Source: an uncultured Alphaproteobacteria bacterium
Lineage (GTDB): Bacteria; Pseudomonadota; Alphaproteobacteria; Rs-D84
Assembly (NCBI GenBank): GCA_944390225.1
Contig: CALXPB010000004.1
Coordinates: 2,366-66,365, forward strand
Length of the DNA stretch: 64,000 bases
Reading direction: 5' to 3'
Both the position numbers and the translations under genes were made by a program. The notes under the pieces were generated by a model. The model did no database searches. It was given only the letters and a program-made list of their open reading frames with translations, and was not told the DNA's origin. Position 1 is the first letter of the stretch. Each line of letters opens with the position of its first letter. Shown here piece after piece: positions 8,856-28,518 of this stretch.

Positions 8856-8861
8856 AGCAAT

Positions 8862-10168: not shown

Positions 10169-10414
10169 ATGACCCATGAAGATGTATGGCGGGCAATAGA
10201 ACGCTTTGCAACAGAACACGGAATGTCTTGTTCCGGTTTGGCAAAATGTAGTGGTTTAGATCCTACTACGTTTAATAAAAGTAAACGTTGGTCTAAGGAG
10301 GGGCAGCCAAGATGGCCGTCAACGAATAGTATTTCTAAAATATTGGCTTCCACAGGCGCAAGTATACAAGACTTTACAAAATTCATTGACCCGCAAAACC
10401 AAAGTCGAGATTGA
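10169..10414 (+). CDS. XRE/Cro-CI-type helix-turn-helix regulator (stand-alone HTH, 81 aa)
   Basis: MTHEDVWRAIERFATEHGMSCSGLAKCSGLDPTTFNKSKRWSKEGQPRWPSTNSISKIL resembles the N-terminal HTH domain of alphaproteobacterial phage-repressor-like proteins. SD gaggagag is present. Start is set at 10169 (track start 10127). Confidence 0.72.
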   Translation: MTHEDVWRAIERFATEHGMSCSGLAKCSGLDPTTFNKSKRWSKEGQPRWPSTNSISKILASTGASIQDFTKFIDPQNQSRD

Positions 10415-11608: not shown

Positions 11609-11637
11609 TTGACTTTATATGTTATTTATGGTATTAT
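11609..11637 (+). promoter_or_regulatory. sigma70-like promoter TTGACT-N17-TATTAT at the head of the phage-like cluster
   Basis: ttgact ttatatgttatttatgg tattat, immediately after the birA stop. Confidence 0.55.
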
Positions 11638-11664
11638 ATAAAACATAAACAGTAGAGATTGTTT

Positions 11665-11717
11665 CCGTAACAGTGTTGCGGATTTTTTTGTCGCACATAT
11701 TATGTGCGACTTTTTTT
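11665..11717 (+). terminator. two tandem intrinsic terminators in the leader of the phage-like cluster
   Basis: CCGTAAcagtgTTGCGG+attttttt (11665-11689), then GTCGCACATattATGTGCGAC+ttttttt (11690-11717). Both lie between the promoter and the first ORF (ATG 11739). Confidence 0.55.
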
Positions 11718-11738: not shown

Positions 11739-12149
11739 ATGCATCTTAAATTAATAAAAAATCCGGATGAATCAAAAAAAATTATCTATGATATATCTCG
11801 GGTTATTTATGCAGAAACGCATGCAACATCTTTACTTGTTGTTGAGGCGATGGCATCCATGATAAAAAATATTTCTATTTCATCAAAAAAAGACTTTAAA
11901 GATATTATTTCTGATGAAAGTTTATTCGACTCGTTAAAGGAAAATTCTAGAAACCATCAGTATTTAAAAATTGATTCTCAGAATCGCGCGTTTCAGATGT
12001 GCATGCGTGTTGTTAAAAGAATGCTTAACGGTGATTTAGCAGATTGTTGCTTTGGGGCAACAAAGTTTCATCACTCAGATGAAATGCCGGATTGGGCAGT
12101 GGCGCGTGGTTATATTGCCGATATAGACGGTTTGTTGTTTTACTTATAA
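11739..12149 (+). CDS. cell-wall hydrolase, SleB/Hydrolase_2-like (putative endolysin)
   Basis: VIYAETHATS...AMASMIKNI and C-terminal ATKFHHSDEMPDWAVARGYIADIDGLLFY match the Hydrolase_2 pattern (..P.WA......IG.H.FY). Start is set at ATG 11739. Confidence 0.68.
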   Translation: MHLKLIKNPDESKKIIYDISRVIYAETHATSLLVVEAMASMIKNISISSKKDFKDIISDESLFDSLKENSRNHQYLKIDSQNRAFQMCMRVVKRMLNGDLADCCFGATKFHHSDEMPDWAVARGYIADIDGLLFYL

Positions 12150-12160: not shown

Positions 12161-12382
12161 ATGAATAAAATTATTAAAGGCGGTTTTTTAGCAGGGCATA
12201 GAACTTACATAATTTCTGGTATCGGTATTTTATCCGCAATCGGTGCATATATGGTCGGTGATACAGATGTGTTCACTATGTTGCAAGCAATCTTTACATT
12301 GGGCGGAATTTATTTTCTGCGTAAATCAAGCGAAACAAAAGGAAAGAAAAATGGAAAAAATTCCAGAAAAATTTCTAAATGA
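12161..12382 (+). CDS. putative holin (2-3 TM phage membrane protein)
   Basis: 73 aa. GHRTYIISGIGILSAIGAYMVGDTDVFTMLQAIFTLGGIYFLRKS, then a Lys-rich tail. It lies directly after the hydrolase. Confidence 0.5.
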   Translation: MNKIIKGGFLAGHRTYIISGIGILSAIGAYMVGDTDVFTMLQAIFTLGGIYFLRKSSETKGKKNGKNSRKISK

Positions 12383-13007
12383 AGACGGTACATTAAATAC
12401 TGATGCTTTATTAAAGTCTTATTCTGAATTAGAAAAGAAAATGGGAACAATGATATCCGTCCCAAATGAAAGCACCGATGAAGTAACGCGCGCAAAATTT
12501 TATCGCGCAATAGGCGTTCCTGAAAATGCAGATGCGTATCCGATGAATCCTTTATTTGATGACGCGGATTTACGTGCGCAATTTTTTGAAATCGGTTTGA
12601 CATCTTCTCAGGTTGAAAAAATTTATAAGATAGCAGAAGAATATTTATCTCCTGTTTTATCAGAATTGTTTATCGCGCAGAATGAAACAAATGAAATTTC
12701 AGAATTAAAAAATTTCTTCGGTAGTGAAGAAAAAATGAAAGAGGCTTTACGCGCTATAAATTCGTTCGGTGAAAAATATTTACCGCGTGAAGCATTTGAT
12801 GTATTATGCTCGTCAGCCCAAGGAATACAAAGCGTTTATAGGATGATGCAATCTATGGAACCAAGCGTTCAAACGGATGAAAATATATCGCAAAACTTAA
12901 CAGACGATGAGTTAAGAAGAATGATGCGCGATCCAAAATATTGGCGTGATCAAGATCCTGAATATGTAAGAAAAATAGAAAACGGTTTTAAAAAATTATA
13001 TTCATAA
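12351..13007 (+). CDS. putative capsid scaffolding/assembly protein
   Basis: 218 aa, acidic and helical. The N-terminus IPEKFLNEDGTLNTDALLKSYSELEKKMG is typical of podovirus scaffold proteins. It lies upstream of the capsid gene. Start is at ATG 12351. Confidence 0.5.
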   Translation: MEKIPEKFLNEDGTLNTDALLKSYSELEKKMGTMISVPNESTDEVTRAKFYRAIGVPENADAYPMNPLFDDADLRAQFFEIGLTSSQVEKIYKIAEEYLSPVLSELFIAQNETNEISELKNFFGSEEKMKEALRAINSFGEKYLPREAFDVLCSSAQGIQSVYRMMQSMEPSVQTDENISQNLTDDELRRMMRDPKYWRDQDPEYVRKIENGFKKLYS

Positions 13008-13110
13008 GAAAAAAATGCACTTTCTTCTTTACTATTTTTTTTCTTTAATATAAAATATAAAGTAAGAACAAAAAAATTTGTTCTATCCAAAAAGTAAAAA
13101 GGAGAGAAGA

Positions 13111-13419
13111 ATGGCATTCACATTCTTGAAACCGGCTGCAAAAAAAGTTGCTGCGAAAAAACCAGCAGCTAAACCAGCTGTAAAGAAACCAGCGGCTAAG
13201 AAGCCTGCTGCAAAGAAAGCACCTGCAAAAAAAGTAGCAGTAAAAAAAGTTGCTGCGAAAAAACCAGTTGCTAAAAAAGTTGTTGCAAAGAAAGCACCTG
13301 CAAAAAAAGTAGCAGTAAAAAAAGTTGCTGCGAAAAAGCCGGTTGCAAAGAAAGCATGCGCAAAAAAAGTTGCTGTAAAAAAACCAGTCGCTAAAAAAGC
13401 ATGCGCAAAAAGAAAATAA
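13111..13419 (+). CDS. histone H1-like / AlgP-like Lys-Ala-Pro repeat protein
   Basis: 102 aa made almost entirely of AKKPAAKK/VAKK repeats. Strong SD aaaggagag. Followed by several terminators. Confidence 0.75.
   Translation: MAFTFLKPAAKKVAAKKPAAKPAVKKPAAKKPAAKKAPAKKVAVKKVAAKKPVAKKVVAKKAPAKKVAVKKVAAKKPVAKKACAKKVAVKKPVAKKACAKRK
13211..13360 (+). repeat. 2 x 75-bp tandem repeat inside the H1-like gene
   Basis: caaagaaagcacctgcaaaaaaagtagcagtaaaaaaagttgctgcgaaaaa is identical (52 nt) at 13211 and 13286. It encodes the 25-aa unit AKKAPAKKVAVKKVAAKKPVAKK... Confidence 0.9.
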
Positions 13420-13656: not shown

Positions 13657-14490
13657 ATGTCTGTTTCAATAGATCAAGTCTTCGTAAAACAGTTCGAAGC
13701 AGATGTTCATTTGGCTTATCAGCAAATGGGCACAAAACTGCGTGCCACGGTACGTAGTAAATCCGGTGTAGTTGGTGCGTCAACGACTTTTCAGAAAGTA
13801 GGACGCGGTACGGCAAGTACAAAATCTCGTCATGGCATTGTACCTGTAATGAATTTAAATCATGAACCTGTTGAATGTTTATTGCAGGATTATTATGCGG
13901 GTGATTGGGTAGACGCATTGGATGAATTAAAAACTAACGTAGATGAACGTCGTGTTGTTGCATCTGCTGGTGCCTATGCGTTAGGTAGAAAAACAGATGA
14001 ATTGATTATTTCTGCAATGAGTCAGGCAACGAATTCTGTCGGTGATTATTCTACCGGTTTAACAAAAGACTTAATTTTATCTGCGGTAGAAGAATTGAAT
14101 ACCAAAGACGTACCTGATGATGGACGTAGATTCGCCGTCGTTGGTGTGCATCAATGGAATGAATTGTTGTCAATTGATGAATTTATCTCTGCAGATTATG
14201 TAGGTAATGATTTGCCATTAGTATCTGGTGGTGCTTCTAAGAAATGGTTGGGTATTACATGGGTATTACATAATGGTTTACCTGTATCAGAAGATGATGA
14301 ACGTGATTGCTTTATTTATCATGCAACAAGCATCGGACATGCGTGCGGTCAGGAAGTAAAGACAGATATTTCATGGCATGGTGAACGAGCTGCTCACTTT
14401 ATCAGCAATAGTATGTCACAGGGAGCAGTACTAATTGATAATGACGGCATTGTACGTCTTAAATGTTTGGATGCCGATGAAACTGTTTAA
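13657..14490 (+). CDS. phage major capsid protein (probable HK97-fold, podovirus-type)
   Basis: 277 aa. FVKQFEADVHLAYQQMGTKLRATVRSKSGVVGASTTFQKVGRGTASTKSRHG..PVMNLNHEPVECLLQDYYAGDWVDALDELK resembles capsid proteins annotated in alphaproteobacterial podovirus prophages. Its position after the scaffold gene fits. Confidence 0.65.
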   Translation: MSVSIDQVFVKQFEADVHLAYQQMGTKLRATVRSKSGVVGASTTFQKVGRGTASTKSRHGIVPVMNLNHEPVECLLQDYYAGDWVDALDELKTNVDERRVVASAGAYALGRKTDELIISAMSQATNSVGDYSTGLTKDLILSAVEELNTKDVPDDGRRFAVVGVHQWNELLSIDEFISADYVGNDLPLVSGGASKKWLGITWVLHNGLPVSEDDERDCFIYHATSIGHACGQEVKTDISWHGERAAHFISNSMSQGAVLIDNDGIVRLKCLDADETV

Positions 14491-14518: not shown

Positions 14519-14746
14519 ATGGCTTTTCAGAATAAAAACTTATCTGTTATTGCGTATGCTAATGGTTTTACTTTATGGCATTATTCTGCTGCAGAAACAT
14601 TAGCAACTATCACTGCAAGCGGTTATTTTGACAGTGTAAAAACTTTAATGAATACAGGGGACATTATAATTATAAATGGTTCCGATAATACTTCCATAAA
14701 GAAGATAGTAGCATCTACAAATATAACTGTTGCGGCTTTATCATAA
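14519..14746 (+). CDS. hypothetical phage head-associated protein (75 aa)
   Basis: Compact ORF with SD directly after the capsid gene. No family recognised. Confidence 0.45.
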   Translation: MAFQNKNLSVIAYANGFTLWHYSAAETLATITASGYFDSVKTLMNTGDIIIINGSDNTSIKKIVASTNITVAALS

Positions 14747-14808: not shown

Positions 14809-15327
14809 ATGCTGACAAAAATAGATTTATGTTCCATGGCGCTGTTAAAGTTAGGCGAGAAATCAATTCAGTCTTTATTAGACGATACGCCTTCCGCGCA
14901 ATTAAGCCGAACATTATTTGACCCTGTGATAGACGCGCTTTTAGCATCGCACCCATGGCGGTTTGCGTGTAAGGTTTTCGAATTAACAAAGAACGTCGAC
15001 GGAGAATTTCTTATACCTGCGGACTGTCTGCGCGTATTAAAATGTAAAGGTGAAATCATAGGTAATAAAATAGAATCGTCTGCTGATAGTACTTCAATTT
15101 TGGCGATTGTACGAGTCCCCGTAGAAAAATTTCCCAGTTATTTCGTATCACTGGCGGCAACGAAATTGGCTATGGAATTTTGCATCCCATTAATAGGCGA
15201 GCAAAACGTATTCAGAATGTTGGCGGCATTATACGAGACTGAAATGCAATCTGCGAAGTTTATAGATAGTACGACTTCTATAAACCAAGACATAGAAAAC
15301 TTTTCGTTAATTAATGCACGTTTTTAA
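14809..15327 (+). CDS. T7 gp11-like tail tubular protein A / head-tail adaptor
   Basis: 172 aa. The N-terminus DLCSMALLKLGEKSIQSLLDDTPSAQLSRTLFDPVIDALLASHPWRF follows the gp11-family pattern (..aL..iG...i.sld......a........l...g.W.F). Start is at ATG 14809. Confidence 0.55.
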   Translation: MLTKIDLCSMALLKLGEKSIQSLLDDTPSAQLSRTLFDPVIDALLASHPWRFACKVFELTKNVDGEFLIPADCLRVLKCKGEIIGNKIESSADSTSILAIVRVPVEKFPSYFVSLAATKLAMEFCIPLIGEQNVFRMLAALYETEMQSAKFIDSTTSINQDIENFSLINARF

Positions 15328-15344: not shown

Positions 15345-17060
15345 ATGGGGGACTTTATAAAAACACAAAACACGTTTGCCGACGGTGAAGTCGCACCAGA
15401 ATTTTACGCGCGCGATAATATAAACGGACTTTCAAAATTAGAAAATATGTACGTTTTGGCTGGGGGTGGGCTTTCCAGAAGACCTGGGTTAGAACACGTC
15501 GCAGATTTAACTTCTGCAGCCAGATTAATTGCTTTTTCCGTAAGCGAAAACGAAAATTATTTATTGGCACTGACGGATGAGCATATTTTAATTTTCTCTG
15601 ACGGACAGGAAATAGAGGATATAATTTCTCCGTGGGATGCCGGCGATCTTTCAAAAATTCAATACGCACAGAGATTCGGTACAATAATTTTTGTACATCC
15701 AGATTATCAACCGTATACTTTAAAGAAGTCCGATGACGAATTTATTTTATCTGCGTTTAATTTTGCGGTTAACGAATCTGATATGACAGTATATATACCG
15801 TTTATGAGATTTGATGATACGGAAAACCTTAAAATAACGGTGCTGTCAAATTCGGCAGGCAGTAATTATGCTACATTCAAGACAGATGAAGATTTTTGGA
15901 CGCCGGATGACGTAGAAGGAATATTTCTGCTGTTGGAAAAGCAATGGAAAATTACAGAATATGTAAACGCAAAGGAAGTGAAGGCTTTTGTTAACGGTAC
16001 TTATACGGTTCCGTCTGCACCGGTCTCGGATTGGCGTGAGGCCGCGTTCAGTAAAAAACGAGGTTGGCCGTGTAGCATAACTTTTCATCAAGATAGACTT
16101 GTTTTCGGAGGTTCTCGTTCTTGGCCAAGCGGTGTATGGTTATCACAAGTAGGAAGGCATAATAATTTTAATGTCGGAACGGGTTTGGATGACGAGGCCA
16201 TTTTTATAACATTATTATCGCAACAAAGACAGCAGATATGTACAGTTGTCAGCAGTGATAATCTGCAAATTCTGACTTCTACGGGTGAGTGGGCGATTTC
16301 AAGCAAACCTTTGACACCTTCGGTTGTTGATGTAAAACAACATACTTCCGTTGGCAGCGTTGCTTCAAGGTACCTGCCACCACAGAAAATTGAGGGCTCA
16401 ACGGTTTTCATTTCAAGCAGTAAAAAAGATATTCGCGAATTAAGTTTGGATCAGTTAGGTGAAAATTATAACGCAACAGATTTGTGCGCTTTGTCAAAGC
16501 ATCTTATGCAAGATCCAGTAGATTTATCTTATAACGAAGAAATGCGACAACTGTTTGTCGTTATGAATTCTGGAGATATGGCGGTGCTAAATAAAAATTC
16601 TGCGCTTGGTATCTCGGCTTGGGGAACATATAAAACGCAGGGAACTTTTAAGTCCGTTGCAACTGTTCAGGGTGAAACGTTCGTTGTTGTTATTCGCAAC
16701 GAAAACGCTTTTCTTGAAAAGTTTTCTGAAAGTGCTTTGCAAGATGTAGATGAGTATGGTTTCTCGTTTACCGCGTCTGCTCTGCCTGTGCGAGCGTCTG
16801 GGCATAATGCAAATAAACTTAGATTGCGCAAAATTTCTGCAAGAGTTTTAAATACTAAAACCTTGTTTATAAATGAAGTGCGTGCCGATTTACCCAATGA
16901 AATTTATAATGAAACTTTCGATGGTTATAGCGGTGACGTTTCAATAAATTTATTGGGTTGTCAAAGAAACTGTATAAACGCACCGTGGACCATCAAAAGC
17001 AGTGAACAATTACCGGCAACGGTCTTATCCGTTAGTATGTACGGATATTATTTAGTGTAA
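15345..17060 (+). CDS. T7 gp12-like tail tubular protein B / nozzle
   Basis: 571 aa. The N-terminus TFADGEVAPEFYARDNINGLSKLENMYVLAGGGLSRRPGLEHV matches the G.lsp.l..R.D...y..gl..leN..v...Gg..rRpG signature. It follows the gp11-like gene, as in T7-like phages. Confidence 0.55.
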   Translation: MGDFIKTQNTFADGEVAPEFYARDNINGLSKLENMYVLAGGGLSRRPGLEHVADLTSAARLIAFSVSENENYLLALTDEHILIFSDGQEIEDIISPWDAGDLSKIQYAQRFGTIIFVHPDYQPYTLKKSDDEFILSAFNFAVNESDMTVYIPFMRFDDTENLKITVLSNSAGSNYATFKTDEDFWTPDDVEGIFLLLEKQWKITEYVNAKEVKAFVNGTYTVPSAPVSDWREAAFSKKRGWPCSITFHQDRLVFGGSRSWPSGVWLSQVGRHNNFNVGTGLDDEAIFITLLSQQRQQICTVVSSDNLQILTSTGEWAISSKPLTPSVVDVKQHTSVGSVASRYLPPQKIEGSTVFISSSKKDIRELSLDQLGENYNATDLCALSKHLMQDPVDLSYNEEMRQLFVVMNSGDMAVLNKNSALGISAWGTYKTQGTFKSVATVQGETFVVVIRNENAFLEKFSESALQDVDEYGFSFTASALPVRASGHNANKLRLRKISARVLNTKTLFINEVRADLPNEIYNETFDGYSGDVSINLLGCQRNCINAPWTIKSSEQLPATVLSVSMYGYYLV

Positions 17061-17076: not shown

Positions 17077-17424
17077 ATGGGACAACTAGTATCAGATGTA
17101 ACAGATATTCTGGATTATAAAAATTCTAAGAAAGAGGCAGAAACGGAACGTCAAAAGATACTTGCCGAAATGGCCAAAGACGAAACCGAGAAAACTAATT
17201 TGGTAAAGAAAACTTTGGCAACTCAACGCGCAAAATACGGTGCGTCTGGGATGTCGGGTAAAAGTATGACCGAAGGAGCAGTTCTGAAACGATTGAAACA
17301 AGAAGTTGAAGAACCATATGAAACAAAACGGCGTACAAATAAGGAAAAGTTAAAAAAAATAAAGGTAACAAAGCCGAATATCTTGCAATCAATCTTAGAT
17401 AAGTTTGACGATCTGTTGGACTAG
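17077..17424 (+). CDS. hypothetical Lys/Glu-rich coiled-coil virion-module protein
   Basis: 115 aa with SD gggag. It lies between the nozzle and fibre-adaptor genes. No family recognised. Confidence 0.45.
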   Translation: MGQLVSDVTDILDYKNSKKEAETERQKILAEMAKDETEKTNLVKKTLATQRAKYGASGMSGKSMTEGAVLKRLKQEVEEPYETKRRTNKEKLKKIKVTKPNILQSILDKFDDLLD

Positions 17425-17437: not shown

Positions 17438-17986
17438 ATGTATAAAATATCTTATGTCGGTGACGGCTTGACTTCGGAGTTTTTATTTGCCTTCCCATTC
17501 TTTCAGGACGCCGATATAAAAGTCGCTTTGGACGAAAAACTTTTATCCGAGAATCAATACTCTGTGTACGCTAATGAAAATTTTGACGGAGGAACAGTAA
17601 TTTTTTCAACGCCTCCGGCGGAAGATGTTAAGATAGATATATTCAGACAAATTTCTTTGTCGCGCGTAGTAGATTATCAGCCAACCGCAAAAATTGACCC
17701 AGAAAGTCTAAACTCGGACTTTAACTTTCTTTTGGAAGCCTTCAAGGATTTGCATTCAATAGAAGTTAATGTAACAGAATGGGCGAATATCCACGATAAT
17801 GTTATGAATTTCTTGAATTATAACTTGCAAGTAATTGAAGATAAATTATCTGGCGGAGCTGTTTTAGGCCTATATAATAATCTGGTGTCTGTATTGGAAA
17901 GCGCGCTACCTAAACTGATAAACGATTACGGCAGTATCACGGAAACCGCGCCTAACGAAAATAAAGATGATTACGGACTTTTATAA
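17438..17986 (+). CDS. T7 gp17 N-terminal-domain-like tail fibre adaptor (short, no distal fibre domain)
   Basis: 182 aa. YVGDGLTSEFLFAFPFFQDADIKVALDEKLL..YSV..GGTVIFSTPPAEDVKIDIFRQISLSRVVDYQPTAKIDPESLNSDFNFLLEAFKDL matches the Phage_T7_tail N-domain pattern. Start is at ATG 17438 with SD ggagg. Confidence 0.58.
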   Translation: MYKISYVGDGLTSEFLFAFPFFQDADIKVALDEKLLSENQYSVYANENFDGGTVIFSTPPAEDVKIDIFRQISLSRVVDYQPTAKIDPESLNSDFNFLLEAFKDLHSIEVNVTEWANIHDNVMNFLNYNLQVIEDKLSGGAVLGLYNNLVSVLESALPKLINDYGSITETAPNENKDDYGLL

Positions 17987-18575
17987 CTTCTTGGACGAAT
18001 GGAACGCGATTCTTAATTTTGAAACACCTCGTCACCATAAAGAAATAATGAAGTTCTTGGTTTCTGTTCTATGTGCGGAACCTCATCGAGGTTTATTGAT
18101 GTCTTTCAGACATTCTGGAAAATCAACAGTGGTAGGTATTTTCGCCGCGTGTCTATTGTGCTTGCACCCAGAAACGAGAATTCTGATATTGTCCGCAGAA
18201 AGTAGTTTATCGGCTCGAATGGTTTCCCATATAAAACATATACTGGAAAATCATCCGCGTTGTAAAGATTTAATACCAGATGTAAAAAAGGAATGGGCTC
18301 TGGGAAGGATAACGGTTAATAGACCGATAGGTATACGTGAACCGTCTGTGATTTGTCAGGGGGTATACGGTAATATAACTGGTATGCGTGCAGATTTAAT
18401 AATTTGTGATGATGTAGAGGTACCAAATACCTGTAATACCGCACAGAAAAGAGAAAATCTGAGAGAACGTTTGCGAGAACTTGACTTTATTCTGTCACCT
18501 TCTGGTACAATGATTTATATAGGTACACCGCATACGTTGGACACGATTTATAGAACAAAAGATGCCGATTGTTAA
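17967..18575 (+). CDS. terminase large subunit, N-terminal ATPase-domain fragment (split gene)
   Basis: 202 aa. TPRHHKEI, Walker A FRHSGKSTV, Walker B ADLIICDDVE, and coupling motif IGTPHT, then a stop after ..IYRTKDADC. No nuclease domain. Confidence 0.7.
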   Translation: MITDFYNFLDEWNAILNFETPRHHKEIMKFLVSVLCAEPHRGLLMSFRHSGKSTVVGIFAACLLCLHPETRILILSAESSLSARMVSHIKHILENHPRCKDLIPDVKKEWALGRITVNRPIGIREPSVICQGVYGNITGMRADLIICDDVEVPNTCNTAQKRENLRERLRELDFILSPSGTMIYIGTPHTLDTIYRTKDADC

Positions 18576-19252
18576 ATTGTTGTAGGTGCATCGGGTGCGT
18601 TATCTGTATCAATCGGTTTAATTGTTGTAATGAAAGAGCGTAGTTTTTCTAGTAGTTCTGTACCGGCGTTTCCGAACATCGGTAGGTAAGTTTCATATTC
18701 TGGCATATCTGCTTGTAATTGTGCGCGTGCTCTTTCCGAAAGCGGTTGATTTATCATATCGCTGGCAACTTTCCATAAGTAATAAGCGCGGTAAGTTTTT
18801 GCGATGACAGACCATTTTTCTAGTAAATCCGGTCTTTCGGCAAGTGCGGCGCGTATGGCAACCAACCACTCATCGCCGAATTTTTTTATTACGTCCAGAC
18901 TTTGCAGTTTTTCCAGACTTTCTTCATCTGGAATAAAACTGTTAATCCCCGCTTCCAATTCTTCCCATTCTGTCGGTGTTAAAGATATTGGTGCAACGCT
19001 TTCTGTCATAAGACCACCATAAGGTAGCAAATCACGCTCGATAGAATCCATAGGGGTTTTACCGCTACGTAAGTTTTCTATATGTCGGACAAGCATCTTA
19101 CCTGTTGGTAATTCGCGTAATTCTTTTATTACATCTGGGGTTGCTTCGTTAATAAAAACCTCATTAACAGCTGCCCACCCACCGAAAATTACGTGTTCTT
19201 GGCGATAAAGGTTTAACAATCTTTGTGCGGTTACGCTAACTTTTGCTTTCAT
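18572..19252 (-). CDS. hypothetical protein (226 aa)
   Basis: ORF downstream of the dual-HTH gene. Start is set at ATG 19252 with SD gggggag (track start 19294). The protein is helical and acidic. No family recognised. Confidence 0.5.
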   Translation of the reverse strand: MKAKVSVTAQRLLNLYRQEHVIFGGWAAVNEVFINEATPDVIKELRELPTGKMLVRHIENLRSGKTPMDSIERDLLPYGGLMTESVAPISLTPTEWEELEAGINSFIPDEESLEKLQSLDVIKKFGDEWLVAIRAALAERPDLLEKWSVIAKTYRAYYLWKVASDMINQPLSERARAQLQADMPEYETYLPMFGNAGTELLEKLRSFITTIKPIDTDNAPDAPTTI

Positions 19253-19280
19253 TGGCTCCCCCCATCTGAGCAAGAAAAAT

Positions 19281-20288
19281 TTATTCCATGACAATCATTA
19301 TTACTTTATGTAATGTTTTGCCAAAGATTTTTTCTTCTGGTGAAGATACCTGACCGTATATTTTTCCTCTGGCATCTTGACGGACAAGAACTATCTGTGC
19401 GGTTGTTGCTTCTTCTGAATTTAAAGAGTCGAAATTTTTATCAATAGAAACCGCCAAGTCGCCAACTTGTGCCGGTGTATCTGAATCAACGAACACATAC
19501 GCGCTTTCGGGCAGATAACCGTTTACACGTTTGGAGTTTGGTACTACTGCATATACACCCTTGCGACCCTCTAACATCATCGGAGCAACAATCATTTTTG
19601 TGTCGGACTTTCTGAAAGAAATACTTTTGCCTTCTGGAACGCCGAATACGGGTACTAACTTTTTACGTGCGCTGTCATAGATTTTTGCGCCGTACAGGCT
19701 GTCATGCATATCAATGTCAGTTAAAGGATTCCCCGGAACAAGAACGGATTTTACGCGTTCTTTTACTTTATTAATTTGTTTGTTTAATTCGCCGGCTTTA
19801 TAAAGTTCTGCTATTTTATCAAACAAGCCATCGGTCGTATAGTTAAAGGATTTTGCCAACGGTTCGATTTCATTTTCGTAAATTTCACGTTGCCCGACTT
19901 CTATCTTGTGATAGACAGATAGTGTCATACCGGCATTCTTAGCAGCCTGTGCAATAGTTTTACCCTGTAACTGACGGATTTTTCTTATACCACTGCCGAA
20001 AATCTTTAATCCACCGTCTTCGTTGTCGGTCATGCGACGTTTAATTTCATTTTGCCACTGATTTGCGACTTCATCTGTTTCTTTGATAAATATATCTGAT
20101 AACTTACATCCAAGTATGTTGCATATATTTAATAACTGCTTTTGGTTCAAGCGTCTTACGCCTTTTTCAATTTTTGAAACGGCAGACAACGACAAGTTTG
20201 ATTGACGTGCTAATTCGGTCATTTTCATGCCGTTAGCCAACCTGATGTTTCTTATGTTGTTAGGAAAAATGATTTCTTCTTGAGCCAT
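19281..20288 (-). CDS. dual-HTH XRE-family regulator with C-terminal S24/LexA-like beta domain lacking an obvious Ser-Lys dyad
   Basis: Two HTH_3 units (NIRNIRLANGMKMTELARQSNLSLSAVSKIEKG; GIRKIRQLQGKTIAQAAKNAGMTLSVYHKIEVG). The C-terminal ~120 aa has ..VYAVVPNSKRVNGYLPESAYVFVDSDTPAQVGDLAV. Start is at ATG 20288 with SD aaggag. Confidence 0.72.
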   Translation of the reverse strand: MAQEEIIFPNNIRNIRLANGMKMTELARQSNLSLSAVSKIEKGVRRLNQKQLLNICNILGCKLSDIFIKETDEVANQWQNEIKRRMTDNEDGGLKIFGSGIRKIRQLQGKTIAQAAKNAGMTLSVYHKIEVGQREIYENEIEPLAKSFNYTTDGLFDKIAELYKAGELNKQINKVKERVKSVLVPGNPLTDIDMHDSLYGAKIYDSARKKLVPVFGVPEGKSISFRKSDTKMIVAPMMLEGRKGVYAVVPNSKRVNGYLPESAYVFVDSDTPAQVGDLAVSIDKNFDSLNSEEATTAQIVLVRQDARGKIYGQVSSPEEKIFGKTLHKVIMIVME

Positions 20289-20356
20289 CGCAAAACTCCT
20301 TACTTTTCTTGACAAAATGATAGTCGTTTTTTCAGCACTTCGCAAGCATAAAATGA

Positions 20357-21907
20357 TTATAGCGGTATATCATCAGGAATTTCACTGGTGTCAATTTGCT
20401 CTGGCTGAGAGTCCGGTTTATCTGATGTGTTAATTTGGTCATCCAAGAAATCGTTAGATATTCTGCCTTCCATCTCGTCAAGATTATCAAACAGGCTGTA
20501 ATCACCGAAGAACGCAAGATGCACTGTTTCTGGGCGACCGTGACGGTTTTTCCCGATGATGACATCTGCTTTACCGCGCGCGCGTTCAAGACGTTTCTGG
20601 TAATTTTCAATTATTTTTTCGTTTGCATTACCGGATATGCGCTGTGATGGATCTCGGTTTTCCAGATAGTATTCTTCACGATATGTAAACATTACAATAT
20701 CAGCGTCTTGTTCAATGGAACCGGATTCGCGTAAGTCCGCCAGTTGCGGGCGCTTGTCATCACGAGATTCAACGCTTCGAGACAATTGTGATAGTGCAAT
20801 TATAGGAACATCAAATTCCTTGGCCAGCATTTTTAAACCGCGGGTAATCTCGGAAATTTCTTGAACGCGGTTATCGCTACGTTTTCCGCCCGGCAGAGTC
20901 ATAAGTTGTAAATAATCGATTACTATAAGTGCGACGCCACCATATTTGCGAGCAAGGCGTCTGGTGCGCGTTCTGATTGTAGGAACTGACATACCAGGAG
21001 TGTCATCAATTACTAACGGTACATTACCGATTGCCGCAGAATATTGAGACATTTTCAAGAAGTCTTCATCTGTCAGATTCCCTTCGCGCATTGCCGTTGC
21101 AGGTACTTTTGATTGGGAAGATAATACGCGCGTCGCTAATTGAGAAGCAGACATTTCAAGACTGAAAAATATTACGGCTCCTTTATATTGTTTATTGGCT
21201 CGACCGTAAAGAATTGCGTTTGCCGCATTAAATGCGATATTCATCGCCAAAGTCGTCTTACCCATAGCCGGACGACCCGCAATTATAAGTAAATCTGAGT
21301 GGTGTAAACCGCTGATGGATTTATCCAAAGCCGTTAAACCAGTAGTCAAACCAGATAGTTTACCGTCTGCTTTATATGCTATTTCAGCCTCTTGTAGAGC
21401 ACTTTGCAGAGCCGTTGCAATAGAACATCCTTCATGTTCCGATACACCGGCAGATGCCATTTCAAACAATTTCTGTTCGGCAGATTCAATTTGCGCAGAT
21501 ACCGGATTGTCTAAGTCCTCTATAAAAGCGGCATCGGTAATTGATTGCCCCAGATTGATTAAGTCGCGACGCAAAGCGTTTTCATAAACTATGCGACCGT
21601 ATTGTTCAACGTTTACTACGGTTGCACCTGCGCTGGATAATTGGGTTAAATAGTCAATTCCACCAACAGATTCTAAGACACCTTGTTGATCAAGATAATT
21701 TTTTGCCGTTATTATATCAAACGGTATTCCAGCAGAGAATTGTCTTTCTGCCAATTTATATATTTCTTGGTGTGCTGGATGGGAAAAATGTTCGGCGCGC
21801 AGAAATTCTGACACCTTTTCCAGTGCGCGATTATTCATCAGAACTGCCGCCAGAACAGCTTGTTCTGCTTCTAGATTCGTCGGCAAGGTTTTGGGAGTGA
21901 AGTCCAT
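20357..21907 (-). CDS. dnaB: replicative DNA helicase DnaB with ~35-aa acidic C-terminal tail
   Basis: N-terminal NLEAEQAVLAAVL, Walker A GRPAMGKTTLAMN, IVIDYLQLM, and SQLSR..E. There is no SD before the ATG, and its start codon interlocks with the plus-strand ATG at 21906. Confidence 0.9.
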   Translation of the reverse strand: MDFTPKTLPTNLEAEQAVLAAVLMNNRALEKVSEFLRAEHFSHPAHQEIYKLAERQFSAGIPFDIITAKNYLDQQGVLESVGGIDYLTQLSSAGATVVNVEQYGRIVYENALRRDLINLGQSITDAAFIEDLDNPVSAQIESAEQKLFEMASAGVSEHEGCSIATALQSALQEAEIAYKADGKLSGLTTGLTALDKSISGLHHSDLLIIAGRPAMGKTTLAMNIAFNAANAILYGRANKQYKGAVIFFSLEMSASQLATRVLSSQSKVPATAMREGNLTDEDFLKMSQYSAAIGNVPLVIDDTPGMSVPTIRTRTRRLARKYGGVALIVIDYLQLMTLPGGKRSDNRVQEISEITRGLKMLAKEFDVPIIALSQLSRSVESRDDKRPQLADLRESGSIEQDADIVMFTYREEYYLENRDPSQRISGNANEKIIENYQKRLERARGKADVIIGKNRHGRPETVHLAFFGDYSLFDNLDEMEGRISNDFLDDQINTSDKPDSQPEQIDTSEIPDDIPL

Positions 21908-22754
21908 GTCAAATATAGTATATAAAAATTTTGCTTTTTCAACGCCTTTTTTAACTGGCTATCGCGAATTAAGAATTCCCATAATAGATTCTGCCGGGAA
22001 TCCGGCTTGGCCCGAATTGTTCCCGATAGAACGTATCGAAGATTTACGACAAACTGTCGGAGATAGATATTTTTCGGCTCAGATGATGTTGCAATTTGTT
22101 CCACCGGATCGTGCGCGTCTGGATCCTGATTCGCTACATCTTTATGATGATGATTTTGACATCAGAAACGCAAAAATAGGGAACGCTTTAATTACAGGAG
22201 TAACTGCGTATTGGGACCCTTCTTCAGGCAGAAAAAAATCAGACGGCAGTGTCTGCGTGCTTATTTACAGAGACGATAAAAATAAGCATTTTTTCATTCA
22301 TGATGTTAAGTATCTTTTGGTATCAGATGAAGAAAATCACCCTTTGGCTCATCAATGTCAGATGGTATCGGATTTCTTATCAAAGCATGCTTTGCACAAA
22401 ATTTATATAGAAACAAATGGTATGGGAAATGCGTTACCAGAGATAATGAGAACGGTTACTCAGCAACGCGGAATAAAAGTTCAGGTGCAAAAGATTCTGA
22501 ACCACTCAAAAAAAGAAAGCAGAATACTTGATACCATAGAACCTATTTTAACTACGGGCAGACTACACGCGCATCGACGTGTTCAGTTCACGCCTTTGTT
22601 ATCAGAGATGTTAGGCTGGTCACCAGTAGGCAGCACCGGACATGATGACGGTCTGGACGCCGTTGCAGGTGCAATTTGTGCTGCACCGTTACCTGTACGT
22701 CCTTTGGGACAAAGATTACGTCCGTTCACAGCAAATACAGATTTCAAGTTGTAA
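21906..22754 (+). CDS. terminase large subunit, C-terminal (nuclease-domain) fragment (split gene)
   Basis: About 282 aa. WPELFPIERIEDLR..YFSAQMMLQ, RNase-H-like nuclease motifs AYWDPSSG, IETNGMGN and GHDDGLDAVAGA. Own SD gggag lies 8 nt before ATG 21906; the track gives a TTG start at 21891. Confidence 0.68.
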   Translation: MSNIVYKNFAFSTPFLTGYRELRIPIIDSAGNPAWPELFPIERIEDLRQTVGDRYFSAQMMLQFVPPDRARLDPDSLHLYDDDFDIRNAKIGNALITGVTAYWDPSSGRKKSDGSVCVLIYRDDKNKHFFIHDVKYLLVSDEENHPLAHQCQMVSDFLSKHALHKIYIETNGMGNALPEIMRTVTQQRGIKVQVQKILNHSKKESRILDTIEPILTTGRLHAHRRVQFTPLLSEMLGWSPVGSTGHDDGLDAVAGAICAAPLPVRPLGQRLRPFTANTDFKL

Positions 22755-22774: not shown

Positions 22775-23998
22775 ATGCAGAATAATTTACAACAAATGTA
22801 TCGTCGTGCGCTTGATTTGCGTGCGCCTTGGTTAAACAGATGGGATAATGCTTTGCGTTATACGATGCCGACAGAAGACGATGACGTTGCAACCTTGTTC
22901 GACGCAACGGCAGCCGATGCGGTAGATAACTTAGCAGCGTCAATGTATTCTTTGCTTACACCACCGGAATCTTTATGGATTTCATTGATACCAGAAAGTG
23001 AAGATTCACCAGATGCCGCAACCGCAGCGATGGCATTACGAGCAAACTTAAATGACTCTAATTTTTACACAACTATTCATCAGTGTTATTTAGATTTAGT
23101 AATTTTAGGTACAGCTTGTTTATTCATGGCGGAAAACCCTATCGGTGCGGACTCCGCTTTTTCGTTTACAGCGATACCGATGAAGGATATAGCAATATTA
23201 TCAAACGCAGTGTTTCATACAGCCAGTATGCCTGCACGCGAAGTTATGGAAAAGTATCCGTCTTGGACACCACCGGCAGAGTTGCGCGACGCAATAAAGA
23301 AAGACCCGGATATGCCATTAAAACTTGTACAGAGCCTTGTCGGTAAAGATTTTACTGCTTGGTTGGACGTCGGTGGCGATATAGAAAACAACATCGTGTC
23401 AAAAGGTACGTTTGAAACGAATCCTTACTTAATCTTTCGGTGGTCTGTTGCCAGTGGCGAGTTATATGGGCGAGGCCCTGTATTACGCGCTCTGCCGGAT
23501 ATAAAAACCGCGAATAAGGTCGTGGAATTGGTATTAAAAAACGCAACCATTGCCGTATCCGGTATTTGGCAAGCAGACGATGACGGCGTTATAAATCTTT
23601 CTAACATAAACCTTACTCCCGGGGCAATCATACCAAAAGCGGTTGGCAGTTCGGGTTTAACGCCCTTATCATCAGGAGCAGATTTTGATGTGTCTCAGAT
23701 AATATTGAAAGATTTGCGCGAACGCATTCGTCATGCGTTGCTGGCAGATAGGCTGGGATTGCTATCCGAAAAGGAAATGACCGCAACTGAAATAATGGCG
23801 CGTAATGCGGATATGATGCGAATACTCGGGGCTACATACGGTCGTCTGCTGCACGAGTTCATCCGACCGCTGTGTGAAAGAGGTCTGCAGATTTTATCTC
23901 GTCGCGGAGTGATAGATAAAATATCTTTACACAGCGACGCCGAGTTAAAATATATCGCGCCTATCGCAAAGATGGCCATAGAAGAAACATTATTATAA
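22775..23998 (+). CDS. podovirus head-to-tail connector (portal) protein, T7 gp8-like family
   Basis: 407 aa. LQQMYRRALDLRAPWLNRWDNALRYTMP....DATAADAVDNLAASMYSLLTPPESLW fits the Head-tail_con pattern. Start is at ATG 22775 with SD aaaggag. Confidence 0.65.
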   Translation: MQNNLQQMYRRALDLRAPWLNRWDNALRYTMPTEDDDVATLFDATAADAVDNLAASMYSLLTPPESLWISLIPESEDSPDAATAAMALRANLNDSNFYTTIHQCYLDLVILGTACLFMAENPIGADSAFSFTAIPMKDIAILSNAVFHTASMPAREVMEKYPSWTPPAELRDAIKKDPDMPLKLVQSLVGKDFTAWLDVGGDIENNIVSKGTFETNPYLIFRWSVASGELYGRGPVLRALPDIKTANKVVELVLKNATIAVSGIWQADDDGVINLSNINLTPGAIIPKAVGSSGLTPLSSGADFDVSQIILKDLRERIRHALLADRLGLLSEKEMTATEIMARNADMMRILGATYGRLLHEFIRPLCERGLQILSRRGVIDKISLHSDAELKYIAPIAKMAIEETLL

Positions 23999-24010: not shown

Positions 24011-24202
24011 ATGAAAGATATAGAGCAAAATTACACAAGAACGTTCTCAACCTCGGCAGGTGCGGCAGTATTGTCGCACTTACGTAGAATAACAATAGAA
24101 CGCGTGCTTGGACCGAACGCCAGTGATTCAGAATTACGCGGTCTAGAAGCGCAACGCGCACTGGTCCATCAGATTGAAAATATGATAGAACGAGGTAAAT
24201 AA
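24011..24202 (+). CDS. Bbp19-like small phage protein
   Basis: 63 aa. TFSTSAGAAVLSHLRR.......LRGLEAQRALVHQIENMI resembles the Bbp19 domain pattern (F....G..VL..L........EG.R.vv..I). Confidence 0.45.
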   Translation: MKDIEQNYTRTFSTSAGAAVLSHLRRITIERVLGPNASDSELRGLEAQRALVHQIENMIERGK

Positions 24203-24459
24203 TGACCACGCAATCAGGCATAATGGGAATTCTGGACGTTTTACGAGACAGTTGGTTTCTCATTGCTTTTATAGCGGGCATAATATATTGGGTCGCGCGT
24301 CAAGATTCTTCACTGGCAGAAATTGATAGAGCAGACCACAGAATAACAACACTTGAAAACCGAGTCACAATACTAGAAACAGGAATCGGGCAGTTGCAGA
24401 TAAAACTGGACGGCATAAAAGAAGATGTTTCTTTGATAAAAACTGCGGTTATAAAATAA
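24202..24459 (+). CDS. membrane-anchored coiled-coil protein (i-spanin-like architecture)
   Basis: 85 aa. One TM (WFLIAFIAGIIYWV) followed by a heptad-rich coil (RITTLENRVTILETGIGQLQIKLDGIKEDV). Last ORF of the phage-like cluster. Confidence 0.45.
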   Translation: MTTQSGIMGILDVLRDSWFLIAFIAGIIYWVARQDSSLAEIDRADHRITTLENRVTILETGIGQLQIKLDGIKEDVSLIKTAVIK

Positions 24460-24462: not shown

Positions 24463-24484
24463 CCCGCAGAAAAGCGGGATTTTT
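24463..24484. terminator. intrinsic terminator closing the phage-like cluster
   Basis: aaaaaCCCGCagaaaaGCGGGattttt. It sits between convergent genes. Confidence 0.6.
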
Positions 24485-24696: not shown

Positions 24697-25038
24697 TTAT
24701 ATCGCACCTTTAATCCATTTGATTTTAAAGCGAGTAATTATGATTACATCAAATCTAGCGTTTCCACGCCAATTACGTTGTTCAATAAAGGTTTCCGCTG
24801 CGGTTCGCAATCTTTTTATTTGTGTGCGAGGGATTGCATTAAACGCATCGGTTATTGTCGGTCTTTTTTTGACTTCTACGAATAAGATGAGATTTTCTTT
24901 TTTTGCTATGATATCGATTTCTGCTCGACCGGTAAAACGTCCGGTTTTAAAGCGTTTTTTTAATATTCTGAATCCGTGCAATCTTAAATAATTGCGAGCC
25001 AAAAATTCAGAAAATAGTCCCGAAACATAAGAATTCAT
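24697..25038 (-). CDS. yraN: YraN-family (UPF0102) endonuclease-like protein
   Basis: G.FSEFLARNYLRLHGFRILKKRFKT..GEIDIIAKKENLILFVEVKKR matches the YraN signature. Start is set at ATG 25038 (track start 25056). Confidence 0.78.
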   Translation of the reverse strand: MNSYVSGLFSEFLARNYLRLHGFRILKKRFKTGRFTGRAEIDIIAKKENLILFVEVKKRPTITDAFNAIPRTQIKRLRTAAETFIEQRNWRGNARFDVIIITRFKIKWIKGAI

Positions 25039-25067
25039 AATTATAAAAATAACCAAAAAGGGAAAGA

Positions 25068-25523
25068 ATGTCTAGACAAATACAAATACGTCGTGGTAGT
25101 GCGACGGAACACGAAGATTTTACAGGTGCCATTGGCGAGATAACAATGGACACGACGAATAAAACATTGCGCGTACATGACGGTGAAACTGTTGGTGGAA
25201 CGCCACTAGCAAAACAGAGCGAGCTGGATGATATAAAAAATTATTTATTAAAAATAGATTTAGATTGGGATAATAAAGTTGATTGTACTAGTACAGTCAA
25301 TATAACTATTAATAAAAATGGTTTTATGTTATGCCGTGGTTCTACATATTCTTTAGATTGGGTGGAAGCAGATTTTAAAACAGAATTATTACGTGAATAT
25401 ATATTATCTAATAACTATACAACAGTTTGGGCGCCGGTTTATGAGGGGCAACATCTTAAACAACGTCAAAAATCTGAGTATAGTACCTCTTTTTTTATAC
25501 CGTACAAAAGTGTTTTAGAATAA
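25068..25523 (+). CDS. phage tail-fibre-like protein with Mtd_N/HylP-type N-terminal domain (paralog 1)
   Basis: IQIRRGSATEHEDFTGAIGEITMDTTNKTLRVHDGETVGGTPLA is the IQ.RRG....w......GE...dTd....kiGDG motif of fibre and tropism-determinant N-domains. It is about 60 percent identical over ~48 aa to the 48904-49473 protein. The C-terminal ~100 aa is unrelated. Confidence 0.6.
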   Translation: MSRQIQIRRGSATEHEDFTGAIGEITMDTTNKTLRVHDGETVGGTPLAKQSELDDIKNYLLKIDLDWDNKVDCTSTVNITINKNGFMLCRGSTYSLDWVEADFKTELLREYILSNNYTTVWAPVYEGQHLKQRQKSEYSTSFFIPYKSVLE

Positions 25524-26420
25524 ATACATATAAATATTAAAAATCATATAATTAGGACAGAATAAAAAAAACCTAAATCGTTTAGTTAATTTTTTTCTAT
25601 CCTGTTTTTTTAGATTTTTTCTTATGTTTTTTTTATAAAAGTCGCGAATCATTTTAAACAATTGCTTATGTTGTTTCCTATTAAAAGGCATGTCTATATA
25701 TCGTAATTCGAAAGGTTCGTGTTCTAGAAATTTTGCTAAATGTAAAGAATGAGATTTCCATAAATTATGTTTATTATAAAAAGATACTAAAATGTTAAAC
25801 CATTGTGGAATTTGGCTTAGGGTTTTATCACATGATTTTTTTATTTGTAAGTGATTTTGTGAATCGTGTTTACGATAATTATATTTTACATTTGGTTCAA
25901 ATGATATTTTTTTTGTAAGAGCCAATAATTGATGTGAAAATAAGCCATCTTCACATGGTTGTAAACCAATAGGAAAAATAATTTCTGGAAATCGCTTTAA
26001 AAACTCATTGCGTACAATGAACGCCATAACTGGTAAAGCAGTGGGCAGAGGCATACGATTTTTAAAAGAATTACCTAAAACTACAATATCAGATTTTTCT
26101 GTTAAAGCTTTATTATAGGCATGTTCTAAAAATTTCGAACTGATTGTATCATCTGAATCCATAAAAAATAAAAATTCTCCAGAAGCAAGGCTAAGCCCCT
26201 TATTCCGTGCGCTTGATACTCCGCCGTTTTTTTGATAAACATACTTGATACGAGAGTCCCGTTTAACATAGTCTAAACATATTTTGTCGCAGTTATCGGG
26301 GCTTCCATCATTTATCAAGATTAATTCCCAATCCGTTAGAGTTTGAGAAATTATACTATCTATACATTCTGACAGGTATTTTTCTACATTATAAACTGGT
26401 ACAATAATAGAAATTTTCAT
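25515..26420 (-). CDS. family 2 glycosyltransferase
   Basis: MKISIIVPVYNVEKYLSECIDSIISQTLTDWELILINDGSPDN, and DSDD (DxD). Confidence 0.85.
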   Translation of the reverse strand: MKISIIVPVYNVEKYLSECIDSIISQTLTDWELILINDGSPDNCDKICLDYVKRDSRIKYVYQKNGGVSSARNKGLSLASGEFLFFMDSDDTISSKFLEHAYNKALTEKSDIVVLGNSFKNRMPLPTALPVMAFIVRNEFLKRFPEIIFPIGLQPCEDGLFSHQLLALTKKISFEPNVKYNYRKHDSQNHLQIKKSCDKTLSQIPQWFNILVSFYNKHNLWKSHSLHLAKFLEHEPFELRYIDMPFNRKQHKQLFKMIRDFYKKNIRKNLKKQDRKKLTKRFRFFLFCPNYMIFNIYMYLF

Positions 26421-28517: not shown

Positions 28518-28518
28518 T

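Follow-up and report, generated by a model that had tools for sequence, protein, structure and literature searches.

Large terminases have been described as single-chain enzymes: their ATPase, composed of an ASCE and a lid subdomain, translocates DNA into the capsid, and their nuclease cleaves it (PMC5727402). The locus described here raises the question of how such an enzyme can be encoded by two open reading frames (ORFs) that are separated by the gene of a replicative helicase. It is located on contig CALXPB010000004.1 (assembly GCA_944390225.1) of an uncultured member of the Alphaproteobacteria, order Rs-D84. The stretch analyzed, referred to as the window, comprises 64,000 nt (positions 2,366–66,365 of the contig, forward strand); all positions are given within it. 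The two ORFs, terL-N and terL-C, flank an opposite-strand block encoding a clade-specific protein (the orphan), a dual helix-turn-helix (HTH) regulator, and DnaB (Table 1). An initial annotation of this DNA had reported the ORF coordinates, the terminase motifs, and the three intervening minus-strand genes, all of which were reproduced in our ORF map. It had left four readings: a terminase inactivated by insertion in a dead prophage, a terminase made as two polypeptides, a rearrangeable segment, or an assembly artefact. We favor the second, based on intact ORFs in 166 terL-N and 133 terL-C orthologues, ratios of non-synonymous to synonymous substitutions (dN/dS) of about 0.06 and 0.09, and invariant catalytic motifs. 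Most likely, the terminase works as two polypeptides and belongs to a vertically inherited, domesticated T7-like gene cluster that is a candidate gene transfer agent (GTA). The clade-wide, domesticated nature of this element had been missed before.

Two ORFs encode complementary halves of a T7-type large terminase

TerL-N carries the motifs FRHSGKST (Walker A), LIICDDVE (Walker B), and IGTPHT (motif III), and TerL-C carries AYWDPSSG, IETNGMGN, and GHDDGLDAV. Pfam assigned Terminase_6N to TerL-N and both Terminase_6C and Terminase-T7_RNaseH-like to TerL-C; T7 gp19 was matched by TerL-N at 1.6e-20 (phmmer). On the profile of PHROG 38 (large terminase), TerL-N covered positions 271–459 and TerL-C positions 470–703. 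When concatenated, the two proteins aligned in one piece with T7-like TerL proteins over 95–97% of the length. Their summed length of 202 + 282 = 484 aa compares to 480–510 aa in the aligned intact relatives (~50% identity). In these alignments, a linker of ~12 residues is swapped for a short tail of TerL-N (~6 extra residues) and a short head of TerL-C (~12 extra residues), and nothing else is missing. Profile positions, one-piece alignment, and the short linker thus agree with the view, which the initial annotation had left to profile searches, that the ORFs are complementary halves of one terminase. FRHSGKST, LIICDDVE, and GTPH were invariant in split and unsplit relatives; the D of YWDP, the E of ETNG, and the DD of DDGLD were invariant in 59 sequences. 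Among the homologues of TerL-C, a protein of 402 aa (P0272) was considered as a TerL fusion and rejected, as its extra length is an internal tandem duplication of ~120 residues, either real or an assembly artefact.

T7-type TerL proteins, such as T7 gp19 (PDB 4BIJ) and PhiV-1 TerL (PDB 8DGC), belong to the same family and share the motif order, including the acidic triad of the nuclease. All catalytic and fold characters of this family that we tested were present, and only the single-chain architecture was lacking: two ORFs occurred in every Rs-D84 locus examined. In contrast to T7-type TerL, the Rs-D84 enzyme is encoded by two genes that lie 3.3 kb apart, further apart, or unlinked, with the cut between the ASCE core and the likely lid. 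The T7 enzyme is also longer, with 586 aa compared to a total of 484 aa in the two halves.

The cut most likely separates the ASCE core from the lid

In the window, TerL-N ends 12 residues past motif III. Its alignment spans residues 30–213 of T7 gp19, placing the break at about gp19 residue 213, and on the Pfam model of the ATPase domain the break maps to about position 153 of 215 in Terminase_6N, as judged from an intact relative. The nuclease fold begins at about residue 102 of TerL-C according to Pfam (Terminase_6C) and at about residue 75 in the AlphaFold model. In TerL proteins, the ASCE and lid subdomains together make up the ATPase domain, which a short linker connects to the nuclease (PMC5727402). 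Based on these positions and this domain order, the cut most likely lies inside the ATPase domain and separates the ASCE core from the lid, the linker, and the nuclease. A split at the boundary between ATPase and nuclease domains, as proposed earlier, was not borne out, since the nuclease starts only ~75–102 residues into TerL-C.

When TerL-C was modelled alone by AlphaFold, the nuclease was predicted confidently, and Foldseek searches with the model returned PhiV-1 TerL and terminase nuclease domains as best matches. Residues 1–22 had predicted local distance difference test scores (pLDDT) below 50 and residues 23–70 scores of 57–73. The head of TerL-C is strongly conserved (PFL, IP, WPE.F, F.AQMML). 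A segment that is conserved yet poorly modelled fits a part of the protein that requires TerL-N as partner. We therefore envisage TerL-N as the ASCE ATPase core and TerL-C as, most likely, lid and linker followed by an RNase H-like nuclease. The two polypeptides would dock non-covalently, the lid onto the ASCE core, and so rebuild the packaging motor and the nuclease.

The split is conserved throughout Rs-D84

The 120 best database homologues of terL-N were all ~200 aa in length and 77–100% identical, and nearly all of the 120 best homologues of terL-C measured 279–282 aa. The nearest full-length TerL proteins (450–510 aa) shared at most 53% identity. Named sources of the homologues were Candidatus Enterousia and metagenome-assembled genomes (MAGs) of unclassified Alphaproteobacteria or 'Rickettsiales'. 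Altogether, the split was seen in more than 200 independent assemblies of Candidatus Enterousia/order Rs-D84, gut Alphaproteobacteria with reduced genomes, with a G+C content (GC) of the locus between 32 and 57%, and a scan of species-representative genomes yielded at least 559 relatives. According to source names and record titles, the hosts include cattle, sheep, yak, deer, horse, chicken, and mouse; further MAGs are apparently from human and termite guts. terL-N ended 0 to ~10 residues past DTIY(R/K)T in 166 of 166 ORFs, and the ORFs of the 166 terL-N and 133 terL-C orthologues contained no internal stops.

The order terL-N, orphan, HTH regulator, and dnaB (the latter three on the opposite strand), terL-C, portal was found in seven loci on contigs of 32–458 kb (L001–L007) and was shared by about 79 of the 80 loci from IMG/VR and about 65 of the 80 genomes of species representatives. 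It was also present on OZ007020.1 (L149), a closed circular long-read chromosome of 958,618 bp. Long-read support for both junctions and a comparison with related genomes, both proposed as checks along with the initial annotation, are provided by this chromosome and by the recurrence of the split in the other assemblies. Together they exclude an assembly artefact.

Several lineages deviate from this order. In L092 and L106, dnaB is again located between the halves but shares their strand, and in L090 the halves are separated by dnaB and an 834-aa gene, with pilin-like and ParA-like genes ahead of the portal gene. L115 contains ~6 kb of extra DNA. No terL-C or portal gene occurred in the 4–10 kb of contig downstream of terL-N in L094, L098, L100, and L112. 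As dnaB is flipped or moved, genes are added, or terL-C and the portal gene are absent nearby, the halves behave as independent genes in deep lineages. L090, L092, and L093 are MAGs whose isolate names suggest an origin from termite gut; the GC of these loci is 48–54%.

Both halves are under purifying selection and have long resided in the host

Selection was estimated by the NG86 method on six diverged loci. Since dS was saturated (>1), the resulting dN/dS values are approximate: 0.056 for terL-N, 0.094 for terL-C, 0.039 for the capsid gene, and 0.043 for the portal gene, with 0.025 for dnaB, 0.037 for the HTH regulator, and 0.058 for the orphan. Strong purifying selection acts on both terminase halves and on the capsid, portal, and tail genes next to them. 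The GC of the structural genes equalled that of the flanks over the range of 32–57% (r = 0.84, mean difference 0.001), and the divergence of every gene of the element followed that of DnaB (r = 0.69–0.84). Median identity to the window copy was 85% for the capsid protein, 79% for DnaB, 76% for TerL-N, and 59% for TerL-C. The capsid protein is therefore better conserved across the clade than the replicative helicase, an unusually strong constraint for a phage-derived gene. Selection and composition point to a long vertical residence in the host. Vertical inheritance under purifying selection, as known from GTAs, is reflected here by dN/dS values of 0.03–0.17, the GC match, divergence tracking that of DnaB, and synteny.

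Genes of the host that interrupt a phage gene are the usual signature of decay, and a remnant prophage with a terminase inactivated by insertion would be the obvious explanation of a single such locus, as would a chimeric assembly. Both are extremely improbable here. Purifying selection acts on both halves, synonymous divergence is saturated, hundreds of orthologues are intact, and the more than 200 independent assemblies include closed long-read genomes. Rs-D84 genomes are mostly smaller than 1 Mb, have lost most biosynthetic pathways, and have a coding density of 81–94% without accumulation of pseudogenes (PMC12306168); dead DNA is unlikely to persist in genomes that are so reduced and coding-dense. 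The dead prophage of the initial annotation is thus excluded by selection, intact orthologues, conserved structural genes, host-like GC, and a divergence that follows DnaB. Phage genes are not mentioned in the study of these genomes (PMC12306168), and no description of the element was found in the literature searched.

No signatures of splicing or rearrangement at the junctions

A single-chain terminase might still be restored in producing cells by programmed DNA rearrangement or by splicing of RNA or protein. Loss of dnaB by rearrangement would be tolerable, as cells that produce particles may lyse anyway. Inteins are self-splicing protein segments that restore one chain. For RNA, a precedent exists in the gut jumbo 'Jug' phages, in which terL is split by a group I intron and a single chain is restored by the self-splicing RNA (bioRxiv 10.1101/2025.08.10.669567). 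All cases of 'split terL' found in our literature search were group I intron insertions repaired by splicing. Such genes resemble the Rs-D84 locus in that the frame is interrupted and gene callers report two pieces. In contrast, the Rs-D84 locus has no intron, and the intervening DNA carries cellular genes on the opposite strand.

At the two junctions, no direct or inverted repeats were detected beyond those expected by chance. No recombinase domain was found in the block or its flanks, as judged by Pfam searches of the window and by the gene content of relatives, and the statement of the initial annotation that the insert lacks recombinase and transposase genes holds for all domains identified in the block. 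Thus, neither of the hallmarks of an excised element like skin, a site-specific recombinase and flanking repeats, was present. A scan of the window at Rfam gathering thresholds yielded three tRNAs only and no intron. Neither intron RNA nor Hint/intein domains occurred at the break, and the extensions at the ORF ends (6 and 12 residues) are far too short for the halves of a split intein. In addition, the block encodes three conserved opposite-strand proteins, its content, orientation, and size vary, and the halves can be unlinked. Restoration of a single chain is therefore very unlikely, and the rearrangeable segment considered previously is not supported.

A second terminase is split at the same point

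A protein 45% identical to terL-N (P0151) led to two long-read contigs, L172 and L173 (1.47 Mb, GC 49%), in which TerL is cut at the same point past motif III into ORFs of 210 aa and 271–284 aa. The two ORFs overlap by 8 nt (ATGGGTGA), and the second is preceded by a GGAGGAG Shine-Dalgarno sequence. A comparison of the terminase genes of L172 with those of L173 revealed 13 synonymous and 2 non-synonymous changes. In a neighbor-joining tree, the Rs-D84 proteins were monophyletic in 200 of 200 bootstraps and were joined with L173 in only 13 of 200, and the nearest relatives of L173 were intact terminases. The two splits are therefore independent. As a separate lineage has split TerL at the same point, the junction past motif III is a recurrently tolerated split site.

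The L172/L173 terminase shares its split position with the Rs-D84 enzyme but differs from it in the 8-nt overlap, the apparent translational coupling, the lack of any insertion, and the lack of capsid genes nearby. The Rs-D84 arrangement may plausibly have begun with adjacent, coupled ORFs of this kind. On both contigs the terminase (8001–9480) lies among tsaD, hemC, hemD, ftsY, miaB, and dapF, and no capsid genes were present within 8 kb. Upstream of the terminase the contigs are not alike, and genes with OLD-like TOPRIM, Beta_protein, and Peptidase_M78 domains are located there. Two other short TerL-N-like proteins (L174, L175) were not accepted as splits; they are encoded on ~1-kb contigs, where a split is indistinguishable from an error or a pseudogene.

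Two polypeptides of one terminase or separately used proteins

Conservation of both halves could also mean that they are kept but no longer form one terminase, being co-opted separately or both serving a role other than packaging. For example, TerL-N might act as a stand-alone packaging ATPase similar to that of phi29 and TerL-C as an independent nuclease. Halves that are unlinked by more than 10 kb in some lineages are in line with this idea, as are the locus L093, where terL-N adjoins the portal gene without terL-C nearby, and the faster evolution of TerL-C compared to TerL-N apparent from the median identities given above. However, TerL-C has kept ~75–100 conserved residues between motif III and the nuclease, which a lone nuclease is not expected to need. 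In nearly all loci, capsid, scaffold, and portal genes accompany both halves, and the catalytic motifs of both activities are invariant. We consider separate co-option unlikely.

Several points weigh against a two-part terminase that packages DNA into particles. The two-polypeptide terminase and the particles are predicted from the genes, and the hosts are uncultured. Separately expressed domains of T4 gp17 are not known to package DNA. The lid label for the head of TerL-C (residues ~13 to 75/100) derives from sequence position and a low-confidence model. In L093, terL-N abuts the portal gene, and no terL-C occurs in the 6 kb of available sequence. Elsewhere in these genomes, an intact terL or a second dnaB may be present. 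Neither a small terminase nor internal core proteins of the T7 type (gp14–16) were recognized in the cluster, and the function of the particle may therefore differ from that of T7. To these are added the saturation of dS stated above and the limits of the promoter statistics given below. On balance, a terminase that works as two polypeptides in a domesticated cluster remains the likely interpretation.

The minus-strand block and its overlaps with the terminase genes

The DnaB protein of the window scored 600.4 bits with NF006606, the equivalog model of the alphaproteobacterial replicative helicase (cut-off 540), and 495 with TIGR00665 (cut-off 385), but remained below the cut-off of the phage_DnaB model. 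It shared 41–48% identity with phage helicases and was no nearer to phage than to cellular DnaB. One dnaB was present per ~20-kb locus in the loci examined, and given the genome sizes of ~1 Mb or less, the gene of the window is probably the only copy. In the proposed interpretation, the DNA between the terminase halves is ordinary chromosomal and regulatory cargo.

The start codons of dnaB and terL-C interlock in CATG (21905–21908), an arrangement found in 126 of 127 canonical loci, and GGGAG is located 8 nt upstream of the terL-C start within codons of dnaB. The junction sequence thereby agrees with the initial annotation, which had placed the terL-C Shine-Dalgarno sequence within the first codons of dnaB. 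That dnaB lacks a Shine-Dalgarno sequence and is transcribed from within terL-C had been proposed as well, and a position-specific promoter-like motif supports this. The −10 box of the candidate dnaB promoter ends 7 nt before the ATG. Of 123 unique loci, 54% had the motif at precisely this offset and a further 16% had a related one at offset 4 (background 0.9% per offset); these statistics ignore shared ancestry and the coding constraint on terL-C. The dnaB mRNA is probably leaderless and initiated inside terL-C, which would explain the missing Shine-Dalgarno sequence. Promoter-like motifs that may serve terL-C were found on the plus strand at −190 and −206 in 42–47% of the loci, but these lie within conserved dnaB coding sequence. 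At the other end of the block, terL-N and the orphan converge and share TTAA at their stops in the window; in about 94% of 146 unique loci, the two stops either overlap or are separated by no more than 7 nt, leaving no terminator between the convergent units. The minus-strand unit would thus start at a promoter inside terL-C and end inside terL-N.

The nesting itself may have a function. With interlocked start codons head-to-head, each promoter within the coding sequence of the other gene, and overlapping stops tail-to-tail without a terminator, transcription of one unit would interfere with that of the other because of these overlaps. Shut-off of the replicative helicase and the regulator would then be coupled to production of the portal protein and the terminase C-half, so that mutual interference would form a switch between replication and terminal particle production. 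We put forward this switch tentatively, as a rather doubtful possibility.

The orphan had 1250 homologues, all of ~221–226 aa, restricted to the clade and without a Pfam domain. Its AlphaFold model is all-helical (pLDDT 80) and did not match any fold in a comparison with the PDB. Of the dual-HTH/S24-like regulator proposed initially, the two Cro/C1-type HTH domains were confirmed, whereas no S24 peptidase domain was detected by Pfam or PDB sequence searches (no structure comparison was run), and the C-terminal half of the protein received no assignment. PADLOC defence models gave only generic HTH matches on the block and the small genes. Together with the orphan, the HTH regulator stays next to terL-N even where dnaB has moved; therefore, the pair may regulate the cluster.

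The terminase is part of a T7-like cluster resembling gene transfer agents

The terminase genes are embedded in a cluster of phage-derived genes (Table 1). The remainder of the window is chromosomal and includes priA, bamA, rne, recG, and ackA. In the gene content of the window and of L001–L007, no integrase, excisionase, replication module, or adjacent tRNA attachment site was present in the cluster. Hence, as in GTAs, a chromosomal cluster of phage-derived structural and packaging genes lacks modules for replication, integration, and lysogeny. At the DNA level, comparison of the window with known phages returned only short fragments of the DnaB and portal genes.

Alternatively, the split terminase might belong to an active mobile element, a prophage or a capsid-forming satellite, that spreads horizontally. 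About 80 such regions are listed as viral in IMG/VR, every virion-type gene is intact, and the closest relatives with intact TerL occur on IMG/VR contigs with similar structural modules. However, the mobility and replication functions named above were not seen, and the chromosomal neighborhood, including a lipoate-ligase-like gene upstream, is constant across genomes of 34–54% GC. The composition is adapted to each host, divergence follows that of DnaB, and an essential-type host gene lies within the cluster. An active mobile element is accordingly quite improbable.

The alphaproteobacterial GTAs (RcGTA-type, BaGTA, and Caulobacter GTA) are likewise phage-derived head, tail, and packaging clusters without replication or integration genes. 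They are chromosomally fixed, vertically inherited clade-wide under purifying selection, and in some lineages possess extra genes at separate loci. Unlike these HK97-like, siphovirus-derived agents, the Rs-D84 cluster is of T7-like podovirus ancestry, as judged from its genes. It also differs in the split terminase, in the nesting of an essential-type host gene and a regulator, and in its hosts with genomes of ~1 Mb or less. FpGTA of Faecalibacterium prausnitzii is described as a GTA-like element of a gut bacterium, most likely podovirus-like and encoded at more than one locus (PMC12946183). It belongs to another phylum, its packaging of host DNA has been demonstrated experimentally, and no split terminase is reported in the passages considered. 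It was the only podovirus-like GTA-like element found in the literature searched.

Table 1. Features of the phage-derived cluster and the nested minus-strand block in the window.
Feature	Position	Strand	Evidence and remarks
Endolysin-like cell-wall hydrolase, first gene of cluster	11742..12149 (ORF opens 11673)	+	PHROG 938 endolysin; Pfam Hydrolase_2 in orthologues
73-aa hydrophobic protein, possibly holin (from position and sequence)	12161..12382	+	ORF, translation
Scaffolding protein, T7 gp9-like	12351..13007	+	Pfam Phage_T7_Capsid PF05396; dN/dS 0.17
Lys/Ala/Pro-rich basic protein, histone-H1-like	13078..13419	+	Pfam HC2, 54.6 bits, low-complexity sequence
Major capsid protein	13657..14490	+	Pfam Phage_capsid_2 3.7e-71; PHROG 3437; dN/dS 0.04
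75-aa virion-module protein, conserved	14519..14746	+	PHROG 18004
Tail tubular protein A, gp11-like	14809..15327 (ORF opens 14770)	+	PHROG 394 tail protein; weak Pfam Tube in orthologue
Tail tubular protein B, gp12-like	15345..17060	+	PHROG 376 tail protein, 6e-83
115-aa charged protein	17077..17424	+	Without family match; position conserved; dN/dS 0.10
Tail-fibre N-terminal (gp17 N-like) adaptor	17438..17986	+	PHROG 1640; weak Pfam Phage_T7_tail
terL-N, predicted ASCE ATPase core	17967..18575	+	202 aa; Walker A, Walker B with catalytic Glu, motif III GTPH; dN/dS 0.056
226-aa clade-specific protein (orphan)	18572..19252 (ORF 18572-19294; conserved ATG at 19252)	-	Without Pfam domain; dN/dS 0.058
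Dual Cro/C1-type HTH regulator, 335 aa from 20288	19281..20288 (ORF 19281-20345)	-	Pfam HTH_3 x2, HTH_19; dN/dS 0.037
dnaB, cellular-type replicative DNA helicase, 516 aa	20357..21907	-	NF006606; dN/dS 0.025
Candidate sigma-70-type dnaB promoter	21915..21942	-	TTGAAA-N16-TACTAT; in terL-C codons 4-13
terL-C, putative lid and linker, then RNase H-like nuclease	21906..22754	+	282 aa; Pfam Terminase_6C; dN/dS 0.094
Portal protein, T7 gp8-like	22775..23998 (ORF opens 22676)	+	Pfam Head-tail_con 2e-81; dN/dS 0.043
Small virion protein, Bbp19-like	24011..24202	+	Pfam Phage_Bbp19
85-aa conserved protein, last gene of cluster	24202..24459	+	Weak PHROG 736; conserved position
Terminator-like hairpin at cluster end	24463..24478		Scores on both strands
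Mtd_N-type tail-fibre/receptor-binding-like gene	25068..25523	+	Pfam Mtd_N 7.6e-15; PHROG 9648 tail protein

Several of the small genes are kept in position among relatives. The endolysin-like gene retains its place in L001–L007 and further loci, a gene of 72–74 aa fills the position of the possible holin in all relatives examined, and the 75-aa protein adjoins the capsid gene in split and unsplit relatives alike. The tail-fibre adaptor gene shares 20 nt with the start of terL-N and is missing from some lineages. The basic protein encoded in the gap between scaffold and capsid genes contains repeats of the AAKKPAAKK type and could be a DNA-condensing component of the particle. In a relative with intact TerL (L010), the scaffold and capsid genes are separated by a 646-aa ORF on the opposite strand (3627–5567); modules of this type may commonly receive opposite-strand insertions.

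Upstream of the cluster, the window contains a small Cro/C1-type HTH gene (10127–10414, plus strand) and a gene of 139 aa (10506–10925, plus strand) with weak winged-helix matches. Both are conserved in L001 and L003–L007, where they likewise precede the lipoate-ligase-like gene and the cluster, and are possible further regulators of the cluster. In L005, an inserted IS1595-family transposase gene (1476–2384) separates the lipoate-ligase-like gene from the first cluster gene; the cluster itself is intact. In 11609–11710, the plus strand carries a strong promoter-like site (TTGACT-17-TATTAT, extended −10 TG) and, behind it, two terminator-like hairpins. The hairpin pair directly precedes the first cluster gene, and more terminator-like hairpins occur at 13421, 13453, 13609, and 14756. 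This layout of promoter and hairpins, along with the internal hairpins, hints at antitermination control of the cluster. Downstream, a UPF0102/NERD-like nuclease gene (24697–25056, minus strand) separates the Mtd_N-type gene from the cluster, a layout shared by L001, L002, and L006. Also downstream of the cluster lie glycosyltransferase-type genes of low GC (28–30%) in 25500–29500; this flank varies between related loci, whereas the upstream flank is conserved.

Implications for packaging motors and for Rs-D84

If the proposed interpretation is correct, the two-piece terminase would show that the ASCE core and the lid/nuclease part of a viral packaging motor can work as separate subunits. A split between core and lid that is kept across hundreds of species and arose at least twice would offer a natural test system for the transfer of force within such motors. 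Few kinds of gene transfer agents are known, and the cluster would extend them by a T7-like lineage. With an essential-type helicase gene nested in the terminase, replication and particle production may be linked in a way that can be tested. For the bacteria themselves, about 13 kb of particle genes held under strong constraint in genomes that are poor in biosynthetic functions (PMC12306168) imply an important benefit.

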